DNA of 52,651 nucleotides from an uncultured Bacillales bacterium. Its GTDB lineage: Bacteria > Bacillota_I > Bacilli_A > RF39 > UBA660. The position numbers and the translations under genes were made by a program. The notes under the pieces are model-generated. The model saw only the letters and a program-made list of their open reading frames with translations. It was not told the DNA's origin and ran no database searches. Positions 22,868-42,998 of the stretch are shown here, in pieces. The stretch spans positions 1-52,651 of the forward strand of contig CAMVMQ010000002.1 of the NCBI GenBank assembly GCA_947168625.1, in the 5' to 3' direction. Within the stretch, counting starts at the first letter, position 1. Each line of letters begins with the position of its first letter.

Positions 22868-22913
22868 ATACAAGTATTTGTATCTTTTTGGTGCGTGGAA
22901 AGGAGGAAATATT

Positions 22914-25900
22914 ATGGCTTTTTTTGATGGTTTATTTGATATAAATAGTAAGAATGATTATAGTGTTACTGGTTTGAATAAAGAACTTAATAGTATTTAT
23001 ATTTATGATTATTTTTGTAAATATAAGAGAAATATACTTGTATTTTGTAATTCTTTATATGAAGCTAATGATATTTATAATAGAATTTCTTGTTATACTG
23101 ATAGGGTTTTATTTTTTCCGATGGATGATTTTATTGCTAGTGAAGCTACTTCAATTAGTCCTGAATTTATGATTGAAAGACTTAGTACTTTAAATAAATT
23201 ATGTGATGATGATAAATATATTGTTGTTACGAATATGACTGGTATGCTTAGGTATTTACCTAGTAAAGAATTATATAAGTCTAAGTTTATTAAATTATCT
23301 AAGAGTGATAGTATTGATAGGGATAAATTTATTAACGATTTATATGAACTTGGATATGAAAACGTTCCTTTAGTTAGTAAAAGTGGAGAGATGGCTATTA
23401 GGGGTTATGTTATTGATATTTTTCCTATTGGTGAAGAGTCTCCGGTTAGAATTGAGTTTTGGGGGGATGATATTGATAGTATTAAATATTTTGATTTAGA
23501 TACTCAGTTATCTAATGAAGAACTTAATAGTATTGATATTTATCCTTTTACAGAGTTTTTAATAGATAAAAAAATTGATGATAATGTAAATAGAAAGCAG
23601 AAATATTTACTTAATTATTCTAGTGATGTAGATGGTTTATGGGGATACTTAGATGATGCTATAGTGGTTTATTATGATTATAATCAGATTGTTACTAGTT
23701 ATTCACTTCTTAGAGAGACGATACTTGGGTATGATGAGGAAGTTAATGATAGTATTAAGACTAATTATATGTATGATATAAATGATATTAAGGTTAATGA
23801 TGTTATTTATATGATGGATATTGATAATTTAGTGGATAAAAAAATTAAGAGTTACAGTTATTTATCTTTTAATATTGATAATTATGCTGGTAATTTTGAG
23901 AGGATTAAGAGTGATTTAGATAAGTATTTACTTAAGGGTAAGACAATTATTTTGTGTATTGATAAGAAACAAGTAGTTAAAAGAATTGTTAGTTATTTGG
24001 ATATTAATGATGATGTTATATTAACTAATGAGAATGAGATTATTAAGGGTAAGATTAATATTATTAATAAGTATATTACGAATGGTTTTATGTATGAAGA
24101 CTATGTAGTAATATCTGTTAATGATTTATTTGGTAAGATAGAGGAAAAGAAAAAGAGTAAGAATAAGTTTAGAGTAGGAACGAAGATTAGTAATATTGAT
24201 AATTTGGTTAAGGGTGACTATATTGTTCATATTGATCATGGTATTGGTATTTATGGGGAACTTTGTTCTCTTACTAAGAATGGGTTAAAGAAAGATTATA
24301 TTAAGCTTATTTATGCTGATGGAGATGTTTTATATTTACCAGTAGAGAAGATTGATAAGATTAGTAAGTTTAGTGCTTCTGATGGGGCTTTAGTTAGACT
24401 TGATAGTTTATCATCTGATAACTGGGAAAAGAAGAAGGCAAGGGTTAGAAAGAAGTTAGAAAGTATTGCTGGCGACTTAATGAAGTTATCAGTAGAGAGA
24501 GAAATGGCTAAAGGATATGCTTTTTCAGCTGATGATGAGAATCAGATTATGTTTGAGAGTAAATTTCAGTATGAACCTACTTCTGATCAGATAAGAGCAA
24601 CGGAAATTATTAAGAAGGCTATGGAAAGTGATAAGCCAATGGATATGCTTTTATGTGGTGATGTTGGTTATGGTAAGACAGAAGTTGCTTTTAGGGCTAT
24701 ATTTAAGGCTATTAATGATGGTAAACAGGTAGCTTATTTATGTCCGACGACTATTTTATCTAATCAGCAATATAATTCGGCATTAGAAAGATTTAGTGAT
24801 GTTCCGGTTAATATTGCTTTACTTAATAGATTTACTAGTGTTAAGAAACAGAATGAAATTTATAGTAAATTAAAAGAAGGTAAGATTGATATTTTATTTG
24901 GTACACATAAGCTTTTGAATGATAAAGTGGATTTTAAGGATTTAGGATTATTAATTATTGATGAGGAGCAGAGATTTGGTGTTGTACATAAAGAGAAGAT
25001 AAAGAGATATAAGAATAATATTGATGTATTAACTCTTAGTGCTACGCCTATTCCTAGAACTCTTCAGATGTCGATGTCTGGGGTTAGGGGTCTTGCTCTT
25101 ATTGAGACTCCTCCGGAGAAGAGAAGACCTATCCAAACTTATGTAATACCTGAGAATAAGAATATTATTAAGGATGCTATATATAAAGAGTTATCTAGAG
25201 ATGGTCAAGTATTTATGCTTTGTAATAATATTGATAAACTTGATAGTAGAATATCCTTTATTAATGATATTGTTCCTGAAGCTAAAGTAAGGTATGCTCA
25301 TGGTAGAATGAGTAAAGAAGATATTGAAGATGTTATGAATGATTTTATTAATCATGAATTTGATATTTTACTATGTACGACGATTATTGAGACGGGTATT
25401 GATATACCTAATGTTAATACTTTAATTATTCTTGATGCTGATAGATTTGGTTTATCGCAACTTTATCAGATTAGAGGTAGAATTGGTAGAAGTGATAGGA
25501 TAGGTTATGCTTATTTAATGTATGATAATAGAAAAGAACTTAATGATTTAGCTGTTAAGAGACTTAATACGATAAAAGAATTTACGGAACTTGGTAGTGG
25601 TTTTAAGATTGCTATGAGAGATTTATCAATAAGAGGTGCTGGGGATATTCTTGGTAGTGAACAGTCTGGTTTTATTGATAGTATTGGTATTGATTTGTAT
25701 TTAAAGATGCTTAAAGAAGAAGTTGATAAATTAAAGGGTATTAAGGTAGAAGAAGAAGATACTAATATTAAGCCTTTAATCGAAGTTGAAACACATATTA
25801 CTAATGAGTATGCTCCGGATGATGAGATTAAGATTGAGATTCATAAGATGATTAATGATATTAATAGTGAAGAGGATATTATTAATCTTAAGAATGTACT

Positions 25901-26225
25901 TGAAGATAGATTTGGTAGAGTTACTGATGAGATGGTTATTTATATGCATGAGGAGTGGTTTGAAAAACAGGCTAAGATTCTTGGTGTTAAGGAATCTAAA
26001 CAGTCTAAGAACTTTATAGAAGTAGTTCTTCCGATACTTACTTCATCTAAAATTGATGGAGAAAAGTTATTCTTTGATGCTTATGATATTAATAAGAACT
26101 TTAAGTTTTCTTATAAAGATAAAAAGATTCATATTATTTTAGATATTACTAAAAATGAGAAACATTTTATTTATTATTTAAATGAATTATTTGATAAGAT
26201 TATTAAAGAAATAGAAAAGAATTAG
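22914..26225 (+). CDS. mfd: transcription-repair coupling factor
   Basis: UvrB-homology N-terminus, CarD-like segment (GDYIVHIDHGIG), SF2 helicase motifs GDVGYGKTEVA and IIDEEQRFG, TRG region. AGGAGG SD precedes ATG 22914. Confidence 0.96.
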   Translation: MAFFDGLFDINSKNDYSVTGLNKELNSIYIYDYFCKYKRNILVFCNSLYEANDIYNRISCYTDRVLFFPMDDFIASEATSISPEFMIERLSTLNKLCDDDKYIVVTNMTGMLRYLPSKELYKSKFIKLSKSDSIDRDKFINDLYELGYENVPLVSKSGEMAIRGYVIDIFPIGEESPVRIEFWGDDIDSIKYFDLDTQLSNEELNSIDIYPFTEFLIDKKIDDNVNRKQKYLLNYSSDVDGLWGYLDDAIVVYYDYNQIVTSYSLLRETILGYDEEVNDSIKTNYMYDINDIKVNDVIYMMDIDNLVDKKIKSYSYLSFNIDNYAGNFERIKSDLDKYLLKGKTIILCIDKKQVVKRIVSYLDINDDVILTNENEIIKGKINIINKYITNGFMYEDYVVISVNDLFGKIEEKKKSKNKFRVGTKISNIDNLVKGDYIVHIDHGIGIYGELCSLTKNGLKKDYIKLIYADGDVLYLPVEKIDKISKFSASDGALVRLDSLSSDNWEKKKARVRKKLESIAGDLMKLSVEREMAKGYAFSADDENQIMFESKFQYEPTSDQIRATEIIKKAMESDKPMDMLLCGDVGYGKTEVAFRAIFKAINDGKQVAYLCPTTILSNQQYNSALERFSDVPVNIALLNRFTSVKKQNEIYSKLKEGKIDILFGTHKLLNDKVDFKDLGLLIIDEEQRFGVVHKEKIKRYKNNIDVLTLSATPIPRTLQMSMSGVRGLALIETPPEKRRPIQTYVIPENKNIIKDAIYKELSRDGQVFMLCNNIDKLDSRISFINDIVPEAKVRYAHGRMSKEDIEDVMNDFINHEFDILLCTTIIETGIDIPNVNTLIILDADRFGLSQLYQIRGRIGRSDRIGYAYLMYDNRKELNDLAVKRLNTIKEFTELGSGFKIAMRDLSIRGAGDILGSEQSGFIDSIGIDLYLKMLKEEVDKLKGIKVEEEDTNIKPLIEVETHITNEYAPDDEIKIEIHKMINDINSEEDIINLKNVLEDRFGRVTDEMVIYMHEEWFEKQAKILGVKESKQSKNFIEVVLPILTSSKIDGEKLFFDAYDINKNFKFSYKDKKIHIILDITKNEKHFIYYLNELFDKIIKEIEKN

Positions 26226-26252
26226 AGATAATATTTATCTTTAATTTTTTTT
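26149..26252 (+). repeat. direct repeat copy 1: authentic mfd 3' end plus terminator
   Basis: About 104 nt, repeated at 26971..27075 with about 3 mismatches. Confidence 0.9.
26226..26252 (+). terminator. weak AT-rich terminator after mfd
   Basis: AGATAA-TAT-TTATCT hairpin followed by TTAATTTTTTTT. Confidence 0.4.
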
Positions 26253-26309
26253 GGTAACCGCTAGCGCTACCCGAAACAATAAATTGTTTCTCCATAGTCT
26301 TGTAGTTGG
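26253..26309 (-). repeat. structured intergenic element, copy A1
   Basis: GGTAACCGCTAGCGCTACCCG, hairpin GAAACAA/TTGTTTC, then CTCCATAGTCTTGTAG. It is the inverted homologue of 28540..28606. Strand assignment is arbitrary. Confidence 0.7.
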
Positions 26310-26419
26310 AATAAACATTTAGTTAGATGTAATGCTATATATAAAGATTAAATTGTAATAAAATGCTTTTAATTATTTTTGTGATATGATAAAATTAAGG
26401 TAGGAAGGAGTTTAGAAAA

Positions 26420-26941
26420 ATGGAAAATATTGAAAAGGAGAATAAAAGACTTAAAGTATTACTTGTTATTTTAGTAGTTATTTTATTGGGATTAGGTTGT
26501 TATCACTATTATGTTACATTTGTTAATGTTGACAAGTGTGACAGTAAAGTGAATGAAAAACAAGATGACAATTTGTCTTATGAAGAGGTATCAGGATATT
26601 ATACAGCTGAAATACAAGAGAATAGTACTAACAAAACTTCTTATTCATTATATTTATATGATAATGGGACATTTTCATTTACCTGGTCCTACATGGCACC
26701 TGTTGGCTTTATTGGTAATTATACTATAAAAGGAAATCAAATTATTTTAAATCCTTTATATGATACTAATAGTGGTGCAAGTAAGTCAAAAACAAAAAAT
26801 GTAACTACAATATTGACTGTTAATCAAGATAAAACTATTGATACGGATGGTTATAATTTTAGAGGAATAACATTAAAAAAATCTAGTGATGGATTAACAG
26901 AAAATCAATTTGATCATTATTTTAATTATGATGAAGAATAA
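26420..26941 (+). CDS. membrane-anchored hypothetical protein (cassette A)
   Basis: SD GGAAGGAG. Short Lys/Glu-rich N-terminus, then one hydrophobic helix (VLLVILVVILLGLGCY) and a 130-aa extracytoplasmic Ser/Thr/Asn-rich domain. Confidence 0.7.
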   Translation: MENIEKENKRLKVLLVILVVILLGLGCYHYYVTFVNVDKCDSKVNEKQDDNLSYEEVSGYYTAEIQENSTNKTSYSLYLYDNGTFSFTWSYMAPVGFIGNYTIKGNQIILNPLYDTNSGASKSKTKNVTTILTVNQDKTIDTDGYNFRGITLKKSSDGLTENQFDHYFNYDEE

Positions 26942-26970
26942 TAAGTTTATAATAAAATGAATATTTTTAA

Positions 26971-27075
26971 CTAAAAATGAGAAACATTTTATTTGTTATT
27001 TAAATGAATCGTTTGATAAGATTATTAAAGAAATAGAAAAGAATTAGAGATAATATTTATCTTTAATTTTTTTTT
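26971..27075 (+). repeat. direct repeat copy 2: duplicated, non-functional mfd 3' end fragment plus terminator
   Basis: Matches the last ~24 codons of mfd (KNEKHFI.YLNE..DKIIKEIEKN*) and its terminator. No upstream mfd reading frame. Confidence 0.9.
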
Positions 27076-27077
27076 AG

Positions 27078-27135
27078 TTTACCGCTATCGCTAACTCATT
27101 AGCTAAAGCTAATTCGCGGAAAGTCTTCTATTAGA
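27078..27135 (-). repeat. structured intergenic element, copy A2 (diverged)
   Basis: TTTACCGCTATCGCTAA, hairpin ATTAGC/GCTAAT, then GAAAGTCTTCTATTAG. Same position relative to the mfd-end repeat as copy A1. Confidence 0.6.
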
Positions 27136-27234
27136 TGATTTCATTATAAATAGTTGATGCTGAATATATTGAATGATAATGATTGAAAATAATTAAGTAT
27201 TATGCTATATTTATTGTAGAAAGGAGTTTAGAAA

Positions 27235-27837
27235 ATGGAAAAAGAAAAAAGTTATAAAGGATTAATAGTTGTATTATTTGTATTAGTAGTTGTTTTAGGA
27301 GCTTTGTGTCTGTTGTTTGCTACAGGGACTATTAGTTTGAAAGGTGATGAACCACAAGTACCAGTAGAAAATAATGCTAATAACAATGAAACATCTAATG
27401 TTTCTCAAACTGAAGAAGATAGTTTACCAGAATGGGCTGAATATTTGTTAACTCATAATATTAGCCAAATCGCAGTTTATAACCGTAACGTTCCAAAAAC
27501 TTTTGAACCTGGAGATAGTTGTCCTGATCCTGAATACTTAACAAATGGTCAATTTAAATCTGTTTTGAAAGAAATGGTAAAATTTAAATTATCAAAATAT
27601 GTAGATGCTTCTGGTTTTGGTGGCGTTTGTATGAAAAGAATAATTGTAACGTATGATGGCACTAAAAAATTTGAATTGTTATTAAATAAATATATTATAA
27701 CTGACGATAGTAAAATTGAGTCATTACTTGAAAAAGAAAATTATACTGAAAACAGTTCAATGAAAGGAAAAGAAACTAATAAAGATATGTTTGCATATGA
27801 ATGGGATGAATCATATTTAGATAATTTATTAGGATAA
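27235..27837 (+). CDS. membrane-anchored hypothetical protein (cassette B)
   Basis: Same SD/leader (AAAGGAGTTTAGAAAATGGAAAA) and same type of N-terminal anchor (LIVVLFVLVVVLGALCLLF) as cassette A. The ectodomain is unrelated. Confidence 0.7.
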   Translation: MEKEKSYKGLIVVLFVLVVVLGALCLLFATGTISLKGDEPQVPVENNANNNETSNVSQTEEDSLPEWAEYLLTHNISQIAVYNRNVPKTFEPGDSCPDPEYLTNGQFKSVLKEMVKFKLSKYVDASGFGGVCMKRIIVTYDGTKKFELLLNKYIITDDSKIESLLEKENYTENSSMKGKETNKDMFAYEWDESYLDNLLG

Positions 27838-27971
27838 TTAATTAAAATTAATATCGTTAATTGTGATATTGATTTTTTAGTTTGAGTAGTATCTTTAATT
27901 TTTTTATATTATTTGTATAAATATTTAGTTATATGGAAGAATATAAAAGAGAAAGTTAAAGGTGATATTAA

Positions 27972-28502
27972 TTGAAGACTACTGGTGTTATTAGAAGAAT
28001 TGATGAGCTAGGTAGAATTGTTATTCCTAAAGAGATTAGAAAGAATCTTAGAATTAAGAATGGTGAAAGTTTAGAAGTATTTGTAGAAGGAGATTCTATT
28101 GTATTAAAAAAATATTCTCAGTTAGAGAATATAGAGAGTGTATCTGTTGATTATGTAGAAGCTTTTAATCAGATTATTAAACATAATATTATTGTTACGG
28201 ATAGAGATAAAGTTATTGCAGTAGCAGGTCCTTTAAAGAAGAAATATTTAGGTAAAGAAATTAATGAATTTACTGAGAGAAGTATTGATAGGAGAGACTC
28301 TTTTTCGGAAAAGCAAAAGAAGATGTTTAGTGTGATTAAGGATGAAGAAGATAATGGTTATTATACTTTTACATCGATTGTGGATAATGGGGATGCTATT
28401 GGTAGTGTTATTATTATTAGTACGGATACTCCTATTACAGATGTTGAAGATAAGATGGGAATTATTTTATCTAAATTACTTAGTAAACAATTCATAGATT
28501 AA
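27972..28502 (+). CDS. spoVT: stage V sporulation protein T (AbrB/SpoVT N-domain plus C-terminal sensor-like domain)
   Basis: TGVIRRIDELGRIVIPKEIRKNLRI swapped-hairpin motif. 176 aa, as for SpoVT. Neighbour of mfd as in Bacillus. AAAGGTGA SD precedes TTG 27972. Confidence 0.85.
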   Translation: MKTTGVIRRIDELGRIVIPKEIRKNLRIKNGESLEVFVEGDSIVLKKYSQLENIESVSVDYVEAFNQIIKHNIIVTDRDKVIAVAGPLKKKYLGKEINEFTERSIDRRDSFSEKQKKMFSVIKDEEDNGYYTFTSIVDNGDAIGSVIIISTDTPITDVEDKMGIILSKLLSKQFID

Positions 28503-28519
28503 AGTCTATGATTTTTTTT

Positions 28520-28550
28520 CTATCAACAATACCTGTTGATAGAAGATTTT
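28520..28550 (+). terminator. spoVT terminator hairpin made of two inverted DnaA-box-like 9-mers
   Basis: CTATCAACA-ATACC-TGTTGATAG followed by AAGATTTTT. Confidence 0.5.
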
Positions 28551-28606
28551 TCTAATACTGGGTTATGGAGAAGTAACTTGTTACTTCGGGTAGCGAAGCG
28601 GTTAAA
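28540..28606 (+). repeat. structured intergenic element, copy B1
   Basis: TAGAAGA...TATGGAG, hairpin GAAGTAA/TTACTTC, then GGGTAGCGAAGCGGTTAAA. Inverted relative to copies A1 and A2. Confidence 0.7.
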
Positions 28607-28617
28607 TAAAAAAAGTA

Positions 28618-42854: not shown

Positions 42855-42904
42855 GAACTTTAATGAAGTTCTTTTTCTATATATTTAAAATTAATATTAT
42901 AATT

Positions 42905-42998
42905 ACTGGTTATTTTAAGTAGAAGACTATGGAGGATTAACTTGTTAATCCGGGTTTAACTATAAATTAAAGATTTTTTAGGAAAAAGTCTTTTTTTT
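42905..42998 (+). ncRNA. putative ~90-nt small RNA containing element B2
   Basis: TATAAT at 42897..42902, then the element, then an 11-bp hairpin AAAGATTTTTT-AGG-AAAAAGTCTTT plus T5 (42969..42998). It sits between two terminated genes. The -35 is weak. Confidence 0.3.
42919..42960 (+). repeat. structured intergenic element, copy B2 (lacks the AGCG..GCGG segment)
   Basis: GTAGAAGACTATGGAG, hairpin GGATTAA/TTAATCC, then GGGTTTAAC. Confidence 0.65.

Follow-up and report, generated by a model that had tools for sequence, protein, structure and literature searches.

The window analysed here is a stretch of 52,651 nucleotides (nt) from contig CAMVMQ010000002.1 of an uncultured Bacillales bacterium. 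The subject of this report is the interval between the genes mfd (transcription-repair coupling factor) and spoVT, in which two small membrane-protein genes stand in tandem, each behind a copy of the end of mfd. The source is a short-read metagenome-assembled genome (MAG; G000) of 888 kb and 27% G+C, in 85 contigs and 86% complete, and its genus takes in Clostridium sp. CAG:302 (contig FR887366.1, G016:C18). Four close genomes were compared, namely this one, G010, G021, and G041 (completeness 73–92%). Feature coordinates are collected in Table 1.

The C-terminal 415 aa of Mfd were 97–98.5% identical to those of the closest genomes, spoVT was 98–99% identical among them, and the region upstream of spoVT (27906–27971) was the same as in the genomes in which the site is empty. 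Relative to that empty site, the insert covers positions 26253–27889 (1637 nt), in agreement with the roughly 1.7 kb estimated in a preliminary description of the DNA. The only open reading frames (ORFs) of the insert are the two small membrane-protein genes, and no recombinase ORF was found in it or in its flanks, as had also been noted in that description.

The last 75 nt of mfd and its terminator recur between the two genes as a direct repeat of 105 nt with 97% identity and three mismatches (26995, 27010, and 27011). This confirmed the duplication with about three mismatches reported earlier, and blastn against the 888-kb genome gave no other pair of this kind (E 1.8e-48 for this one). The upstream copy agreed with the mfd alleles of relatives at all three variable positions. 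In the downstream copy, private substitutions at 26995 (Tyr to Cys) and 27010–27011 (Leu to Ser) alter residues that are invariant in eight functional mfd alleles, and no ORF of at least 40 aa lies over this copy; it is a dead, decaying, non-coding orphan. Over their final 63 nt, the two copies do not differ. The stop codon of the first gene lies 28 nt before the orphan, and cassette 1 has no hairpin of its own, so that the orphan hairpin would be the sole terminator available to it.

Past each tail, the two units are collinear and consist of a structured element, a promoter-like stretch, a Shine-Dalgarno (SD) sequence with the start codon, and a coding stretch of about 30 codons that specifies a charged N-terminus and a transmembrane (TM) helix, the same succession up to a small-protein gene (173 and 200 aa) that the preliminary description had given. 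Between the units, the structured elements were ~63% identical, the 82-nt promoter/SD stretches 71%, and the first ~30 codons 73%, and both contain the near-identical SD/start string AAGGAGTTTAGAAAA(A)TGGAAAA. The similarity of the downstream parts was also detected by blastn (E 7e-9). The promoter assigned to cassette 1 is putative and was absent from the list produced by the consensus scan. With these promoters and terminators in use, the cassettes would be two stand-alone, moron-like transcription units in the order repeat-promoter-SD-gene-terminator. They resemble the morons of phages as autonomous promoter-gene-terminator units between conserved adjacent genes that vary among close relatives, but differ from them in their chromosomal context and in that neither protein has relatives in IMG/VR.

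Table 1. Features of the mfd-spoVT interval and its surroundings (positions in the window unless a contig is given)
Feature	Position	Strand	Basis
mfd (transcription-repair coupling factor), complete, functional-looking	22878..26225	+	Pfam UvrB_inter, CarD_TRCF_RID, DEAD, Helicase_C, TRCF
Repeat copy 1: last 75 nt of mfd, AU-rich terminator hairpin (26215-26251), and T-run; functional gene end	26148..26252	+	self-comparison, fold
Dispersed hairpin repeat (LE), type A; begins right at the end of the T-run	26253..26325	+	model R1 71 bits; nhmmer E 2e-15
Putative cassette 1 signals: extended -10-like TGATATGAT (26382-26390), SD AAGGAG (26405-26410)	26382..26410	+	read from sequence; conserved in strain L111
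Cassette 1 gene, 173 aa	26420..26941	+	ORF list, protein searches, structure prediction
Repeat copy 2: orphan non-coding mfd tail and intact terminator hairpin (27038-27072)	26970..27074	+	self-comparison, fold
Dispersed hairpin repeat (LE), type B	27075..27160	+	model R1 62.5 bits; nhmmer E 4e-16
Putative cassette 2 promoter TTGAAA-17-TATATT with TG (27183-27211), SD AAGGAG (27221-27226)	27183..27226	+	best promoter-like match in the region, 10/12
Cassette 2 gene, 200 aa	27235..27837	+	ORF list, protein searches, structure prediction
Cassette 2's own terminator hairpin and T-run	27844..27880	+	fold
Third, partial mfd-terminator copy, 16 nt, TATCTTTAATTTTTTT; right boundary of the insert, where the match to the empty site resumes	27890..27905	+	sequence comparison
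spoVT, conserved right flank	27972..28502	+	Pfam SpoVT_C E 3.8e-25 and AbrB/MazE domain
Inverted repeat copy (LE) just past spoVT, also present in empty-site genomes	28536..28614	-	model and nhmmer
Further repeat copy (LE) in the window	42884..42971	-	model and nhmmer
Further repeat copy (LE) in G000	C22:12182-12260	-	
Further repeat copy (LE) in G000	C22:11743-11820	+	
Further repeat copy (LE) in G000	C24:10345-10438		
Further repeat copy (LE) in G000	C9:139-223		

The protein of cassette 1 was predicted to have a Lys/Glu-rich N-terminus, a TM helix (residues ~2–35), a disordered linker, and a lipocalin-like ectodomain folded as an 8-stranded beta-barrel. The protein of cassette 2 was predicted to have a short charged N-terminus, a TM helix (8–30), a disordered linker (30–60), and an alpha/beta ectodomain with two conserved Cys residues. 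No sequence similarity was found between the two proteins past the anchor (BLASTP E 2.3), and the predicted ectodomain folds are unlike, a beta-barrel and an alpha/beta domain; the earlier picture of short charged N-termini and single TM anchors with nothing shared beyond them thus stands. A type II (N-in, C-out) single-pass membrane topology is suggested for both proteins by their positive-inside N-termini, by the one helix predicted in each, and by the linker predicted to be disordered. A lipoprotein signal was considered and rejected, as LLGLGC and LGALC misfit the pattern [LVI][ASTVI][GAS]C at −3 to +1. Homologues have A, V, or S in place of the Cys, and AlphaFold2 (AF2) gave one long TM helix.

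In Foldseek, the best neighbours of the barrel were the ToxS/VtrC periplasmic barrels, YedD, and small putative lipoproteins (probability 0.98–1.0, E about 0.02), and weak leads to lipocalins and NlpE came from the Atlas search. The alpha/beta ectodomain had weak neighbours only (Z 5.6 to the putative lipoprotein 4r7r). Pfam, NCBIfam, and PADLOC returned no match for either protein or for four alternative ectodomains, and no defence-system or phage matches were obtained for the proteins in PADLOC and IMG/VR. The most likely function, at the level of a guess, is that of variable surface-exposed binding or shielding proteins; the likeness of the modelled barrel to bile-salt-binding VtrC/ToxS is taken as a lead only.

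Among 27 species of the genus with mfd and spoVT on one contig, the two genes are separated by at most about 115 nt in 22, and this, together with the empty site described next, supports the view that the insert was added to an ancestrally tight mfd-spoVT pair. In the closest genomes, G021 and G041 (mfd C-terminus 97–98% identical), the site is empty, and the junction reads ...GAATTAGAGATAATATTTATCTTTAATTTTTTT directly followed by ATATTATTTGTATAAATA... (also written ...TATCTTTAATTTTTTT followed by ATATTATTTG...). In G010, three different cassettes stand at the same nucleotide, the first two of which encode paralogous cytoplasmic proteins (180 and 170 aa, 42% identical) behind 5' regions that are 96% identical, i.e., a true tandem pair. 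One metagenome pattern scan returned four contigs, including two strains with one cassette each. The cassette of strain L111 combines the head of cassette 1 with another ectodomain and its own terminator, and that of strain L114 combines a cassette-2-type repeat with a G010-type gene. Occupancy of the site was thus 0, 1, 1, 2, and 3 cassettes in near-identical backgrounds, with different genes, which is the variation in cassette number and content that the preliminary description had led one to look for. On the sequences compared, the mfd-spoVT spacer is a strain-variable accessory-gene slot in this lineage. The more distant species G001, G002, and G022 hold unrelated inserts of 0.35–1.1 kb in the spacer, which lack the features described here, and the spacer therefore appears to be a recurrent insertion point in the genus.

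Two of these inserts encode proteins of other kinds. The third G010 cassette (L061, G010:C42, 3894–4868) encodes a 324-aa radical-SAM protein distantly similar to RlmN/Cfr-type rRNA methyltransferases (RlmN E 3.6e-18, far under every family cut-off). The gap in G001 (L066, G001:C3, 4296–4946) encodes a 216-aa secreted Cys-rich protein with three YGCTD..A.NY.....DDGSC repeats and a C-terminal TM segment, and this insert is placed between the mfd stop codon and the terminator.

The terminator repeats that flank the cassettes all stop at the T-run, and how far they reach back varies: cassette 1 has 105 nt and cassette 2 has 16 nt, the copies in G010 and L114 span 31 nt and carry two changes, and L111 has essentially none (~0). 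The 75-nt coding tail of mfd was duplicated at one junction in one genome only, and the proposal that each cassette brings a replacement mfd end was not borne out in that form, since the other junctions have 31-nt or 16-nt terminator copies or none. No occurrence of the mfd-terminator sequence away from the mfd locus was found in the four close genomes; the copies were therefore probably generated locally and are not a portable cassette end, and a role of the terminator copy as a portable, general cassette end was rejected on the same ground. We take the mfd terminator not to be a dif/Xer site, as only one arm is alike by eye, with a spacer of 3 nt instead of 6.

Islands that target the 3' ends of genes (tRNA/tmRNA and protein genes) are alike in that the boundary is a direct repeat, here of the last 75 nt of the target and its terminator, the upstream copy of which leaves mfd whole, with the decaying orphan as the downstream one. 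They differ in that no integrase is present in the inserts here, nor in the cassettes of G010, L111, and L114, and in that the inserts are single genes of 0.7–1.2 kb, the other cassettes duplicating 16–31 nt of terminator or nothing. Restoration of the gene by the direct repeat holds at one junction of the site only.

Breakpoints between modules were located by comparison with the single-cassette strains. L111 and this genome are 90.5% identical over 26142–26532, from inside mfd to codon 38, and then unrelated; L114 and this genome are 92.5% identical over 26970–27170 and then unrelated. In protein searches, anchor 1 (MENIEKENKRLK...CYHYYVT) was found on at least five unrelated ectodomains and anchor 2 (…LFATGTISLK) on at least four, and, conversely, the barrel ectodomain occurs on three anchor types and the alpha/beta ectodomain on two. 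Swapping of ectodomains on a shared leader and anchor happens, as read from these alignments, and is directly visible in L111. A species without the hairpin repeat, G018 (L018/L148, G018:C13:24774–27913), has three tandem genes that share a 201-nt 5' module with 81–96% identity; their ectodomains are unrelated (232, 187, and 239 aa), and the array runs into the contig end. Because anchors are mixed in this way and the G018 array exists, a shared leader and anchor with unrelated ectodomains is a trait of an unannotated gene family found across the genus, to which both proteins belong, and is independent of mfd. Further copies of the leader/anchor module elsewhere in the genome, which had been envisaged earlier, did not turn up: the four close genomes contained no strong one.

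In the vsp and vlp lipoproteins of Mycoplasma, a conserved 5' region and signal peptide are joined to divergent mature parts. The genes described here are alike in being clustered in a reduced-genome member of the Bacilli and in sharing a nearly identical upstream region and an N-terminal targeting module that precede unrelated exposed parts. They differ in having an uncleaved signal anchor with no lipobox, and in varying between strains rather than inside one clone, with no sign of phase variation or inversion.

The structured element behind each mfd tail belongs to a dispersed repeat family of ~80–150 nt that is located directly after the T-runs of intrinsic terminators. Its homology in both units, as first described, was upheld; its reading as a leader specific to the cassettes was not. 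Model R1 was built from six copies, and 24 copies were aligned. The family numbers 8 copies in this genome and 32, 21, and 29 in the other close genomes and is virtually absent from 26 other species of the genus; an independent nhmmer scan likewise gave 8 copies in this genome, with four falling in the window. Since contigs break at or inside repeats, these counts are lower bounds. The aligned copies start immediately past the T-run of the terminator of the local gene and continue with AACCGCT(A/T)(T)CGCTA, a covarying hairpin, a second covarying hairpin, and TCCAkTATATAG; some copies carry two extra hairpins (two to four in all). The terminators that precede the copies all differ. The arms of the first hairpin covary, for example as AAATTAAC/GTTAATTT, GGATTAAC/GTTAATCC, GAAACAAT/ATTGTTTC (the type A copy), and GAAGTAAC/GTTACTTC, and the type B hairpin has TTAGC/GCTAA, compared with TTAAC/GTTAA in relatives, which is a compensatory change. 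Orthologous sites differ by a gene-free indel of about 80–130 nt, the repeat being there in some genomes and missing in others, and all seven cassettes known at the mfd site are headed by it. The promoter is not part of the dispersed repeat, as the likeness to other copies stops after about 90 nt.

Rfam searched at E up to 10 over 25500–28600 gave chance matches only, so the element is not a known RNA family, and the repeat pattern had a single match in IMG/VR, inside a phage gene and attributable to chance. Compared with the repeats known as MITE (miniature inverted-repeat transposable elements) and REP (repetitive extragenic palindromic) (PMC10969869, PMC3184786), the family is likewise small, non-coding, hairpin-rich, intergenic, present in tens of copies, polymorphic in presence, and restricted to a lineage; it differs in its strict position just after terminator T-runs and in having no matching transposase and no Rfam family. 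Terminal inverted repeats were not evident in the 24 aligned copies, nor was a clear target duplication; the flanks are a T-run on one side and sometimes an A-run on the other. No transposase linked to the repeat was found in the close genomes. An IS605-type element with tnpA and tnpB (L146, G010:C28:33800–36400), the only HUH transposase, was present in G010 only; it was rejected as the mobiliser of the repeat, its ends being unrelated and nhmmer finding no repeat copy there.

As to how the slot is filled, we lean towards ordinary recombination on short local homologies, which would also rearrange its content, with the orphan left by the stacking of one occupied allele on another. The mfd-tail copies are 97% identical, against about 70% for repeat, leader, and anchor, the repeats being of different subtypes (A and B), and each subtype has a 90–92% relative in another strain (L111 and L114, respectively). 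From the contrast between tails and heads, and from the closer relatives elsewhere, the two cassettes are probably old paralogues that were recently brought together, and the duplication of the tail is recent. A segment with the mfd end, terminator, repeat, and cassette 1 would have been joined upstream of an occupied site with the mfd end, terminator, repeat, and cassette 2, with homology serving on one side and, around 26965–26975 on the other, either an illegitimate or short-homology join or a template switch. The intact hairpin of the orphan would then terminate cassette 1. Copies of the terminator, the repeats, and the anchor modules could act as short homologies for duplication, loss, and exchange of cassettes and for ectodomain swaps between strains.

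Such a course resembles homology-facilitated illegitimate recombination (HFIR), a process that has reportedly been described in bacteria. HFIR or short-homology template switching would leave one homologous side, one junction without real homology, and a duplicated anchor stretch. The correspondence is limited in that the process can only be conjectured here: mfd is a plausible homologous flank, the junction matches are of the ATATT / AAAATGA type, and of the proteins ComEC and DprA, the former was found and the latter was not.

Several observations weigh against recombination on short homologies. We infer the event itself from its products, and the microhomology at the 26965–26975 junction (ATATT / AAAATGA) is weak. 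All the flanking repeats share a 16-nt core, where a conservative site-specific crossover would fit too, and all seven cassettes begin with the hairpin repeat, which hints at an active role of the repeat in integration. If the DNA entered by transformation, DprA (PF02481) would be expected, and it was found in none of the four genomes (at the completeness of 73–92%); ComEC is present in three of the four. Finally, the order of the two cassettes rests on the assembly of a short-read MAG.

Site-specific integration is an unlikely account of the same locus. Circular cassettes would carry an att site made of the core TATCTTTAATTTTTTT and the repeat arm, and a recombinase acting in trans, of an unknown or Xer type, would insert them serially at the mfd terminator; the site of cassette 1 would happen to have taken in 75 nt of mfd, in the manner of islands that rebuild the 3' end of the gene they target. 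All direct repeats agree in their 16-nt core and right edge, in seven of seven cassettes the hairpin repeat is the first element and follows the T-run immediately, and the covariation of the hairpins is as expected of a DNA site recognised by its structure. In G010, moreover, cassettes with unrelated genes end in a common 31-nt variant, ATTA[AT]GGATAAT..., unlike the chromosomal ATTAGAGATAAT. However, no recombinase gene lies in or beside any cassette, the sets of tyrosine and serine recombinases are unchanged in a relative without the repeat, and the IS605-type transposase of G010 has unrelated ends. No integron integrase was found in the four close genomes (TIGR02249, best 81 bits against a cut-off of 265, the matches being Xer-like genes). 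Further, the terminator core is restricted to the mfd locus, the repeat also occurs solo about 20–30 times per genome as a gene-free indel of ~80–130 nt, and the right end of the L111 cassette has no terminator copy.

Integron cassettes (attC / IntI) are alike in their tandem single-gene units, fixed site, bounds formed by hairpins that vary in sequence but are conserved in pairing, and strain-variable content. They differ from the units here, which have no IntI and promoter-like sites of their own, a hairpin repeat 5' of the gene that also occurs solo, and a terminator repeat unique to the locus. To our knowledge, integrons are not known from this bacterial group. A further reading, to which we give a still smaller chance, is that the terminator and the hairpin repeat behind it are together the attachment site of an undescribed cassette system of gut Bacilli with reduced genomes, in which promoter-bearing single genes might be stacked behind terminators by a structure-recognising enzyme acting in trans or by a terminator-triggered template switch.

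Tandem duplication of an ancestral unit in situ, by unequal crossing-over, with later replacement of the ectodomain and gene conversion keeping the tails alike, is in our judgement improbable. It would explain the near-equal period of the two units (spacings of 822 and 816 nt) and their collinearity from the tail through repeat, promoter, SD, and anchor, and G010 does have a true tandem pair (proteins 42% and 5' regions 96% identical). Yet within one unit the tail is 97% identical and the repeat, leader, and anchor 63–73%, the repeats of subtypes A and B are each closer to those of L111 and L114 (90–92%) than to their neighbour, and single-cassette strains of each type exist, all of which points to the heads of cassettes 1 and 2 not being sisters. 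Of the earlier suggestion of unequal crossing-over followed by ectodomain replacement, the replacement was seen in L111, and simple crossover with divergence does not fit the contrast of 97% with about 70%. Least probable of all is an assembly chimera, in which two one-cassette strains were joined through the shared 68–105-nt tail/terminator repeat and the mfd-tail duplication would still be real in one strain: the MAG is fragmented, the last 63 nt of the copies are identical, related strains have contigs that end precisely where terminator and repeat meet (L112), and many homologues come from contigs of 1–3 kb, but the orphan carries three private substitutions, a multi-cassette array was assembled independently on a 34-kb contig of G010, and the orphan junction (26942–26975) must exist in the reads because it has no counterpart in an unduplicated allele, so that a chimera could touch the order of the two cassettes, not the existence of that junction.

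The site gives a natural series of 0, 1, 2, and 3 cassettes at one position defined to the nucleotide, in an uncultured gut lineage with genomes of ~1 Mb whose plasticity is hardly known. Its surface-exposed proteins, as predicted, appear to be combinatorial, with few leader/anchor modules and many unrelated ectodomains, and the gain and loss of such genes take place at spots marked by intrinsic terminators and a lineage-specific hairpin repeat. The end of a gene left as an orphan can apparently be recruited as a terminator. Both protein families are without a Pfam or NCBIfam assignment and the repeat is without an Rfam family; as all three are strain-variable, they should be useful as markers for strain tracking, and they are candidates for phage- or host-interaction functions. 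A dedicated integration mechanism, should one exist, would make this a new cassette system for Bacillota, with integron-like arrays but no integron integrase.

The repeat was also seen at variable sites elsewhere. Contigs tended to end at the terminator-repeat junction or inside repeats (the end of AUXO015100128.1, L112; G000 C9, C22, and C49). Downstream of a glyA-like gene (G000 C22:11740–12260; L084, G041:C9 1290–2800), a cassette stands between two repeats in inverted orientation, and its content differs: a 65-aa ORF in G000 and a 380-aa TPR/Sel1-like protein in G041, followed there by another repeat and gene. A variable region bordered by terminator and repeat was found at C1:39365–40080 of G000, where the repeat is decayed, and at L097 (G021) and L094 (G041); the three genomes have different minus-strand genes in this region, one of which encodes another anchor-plus-ectodomain protein.

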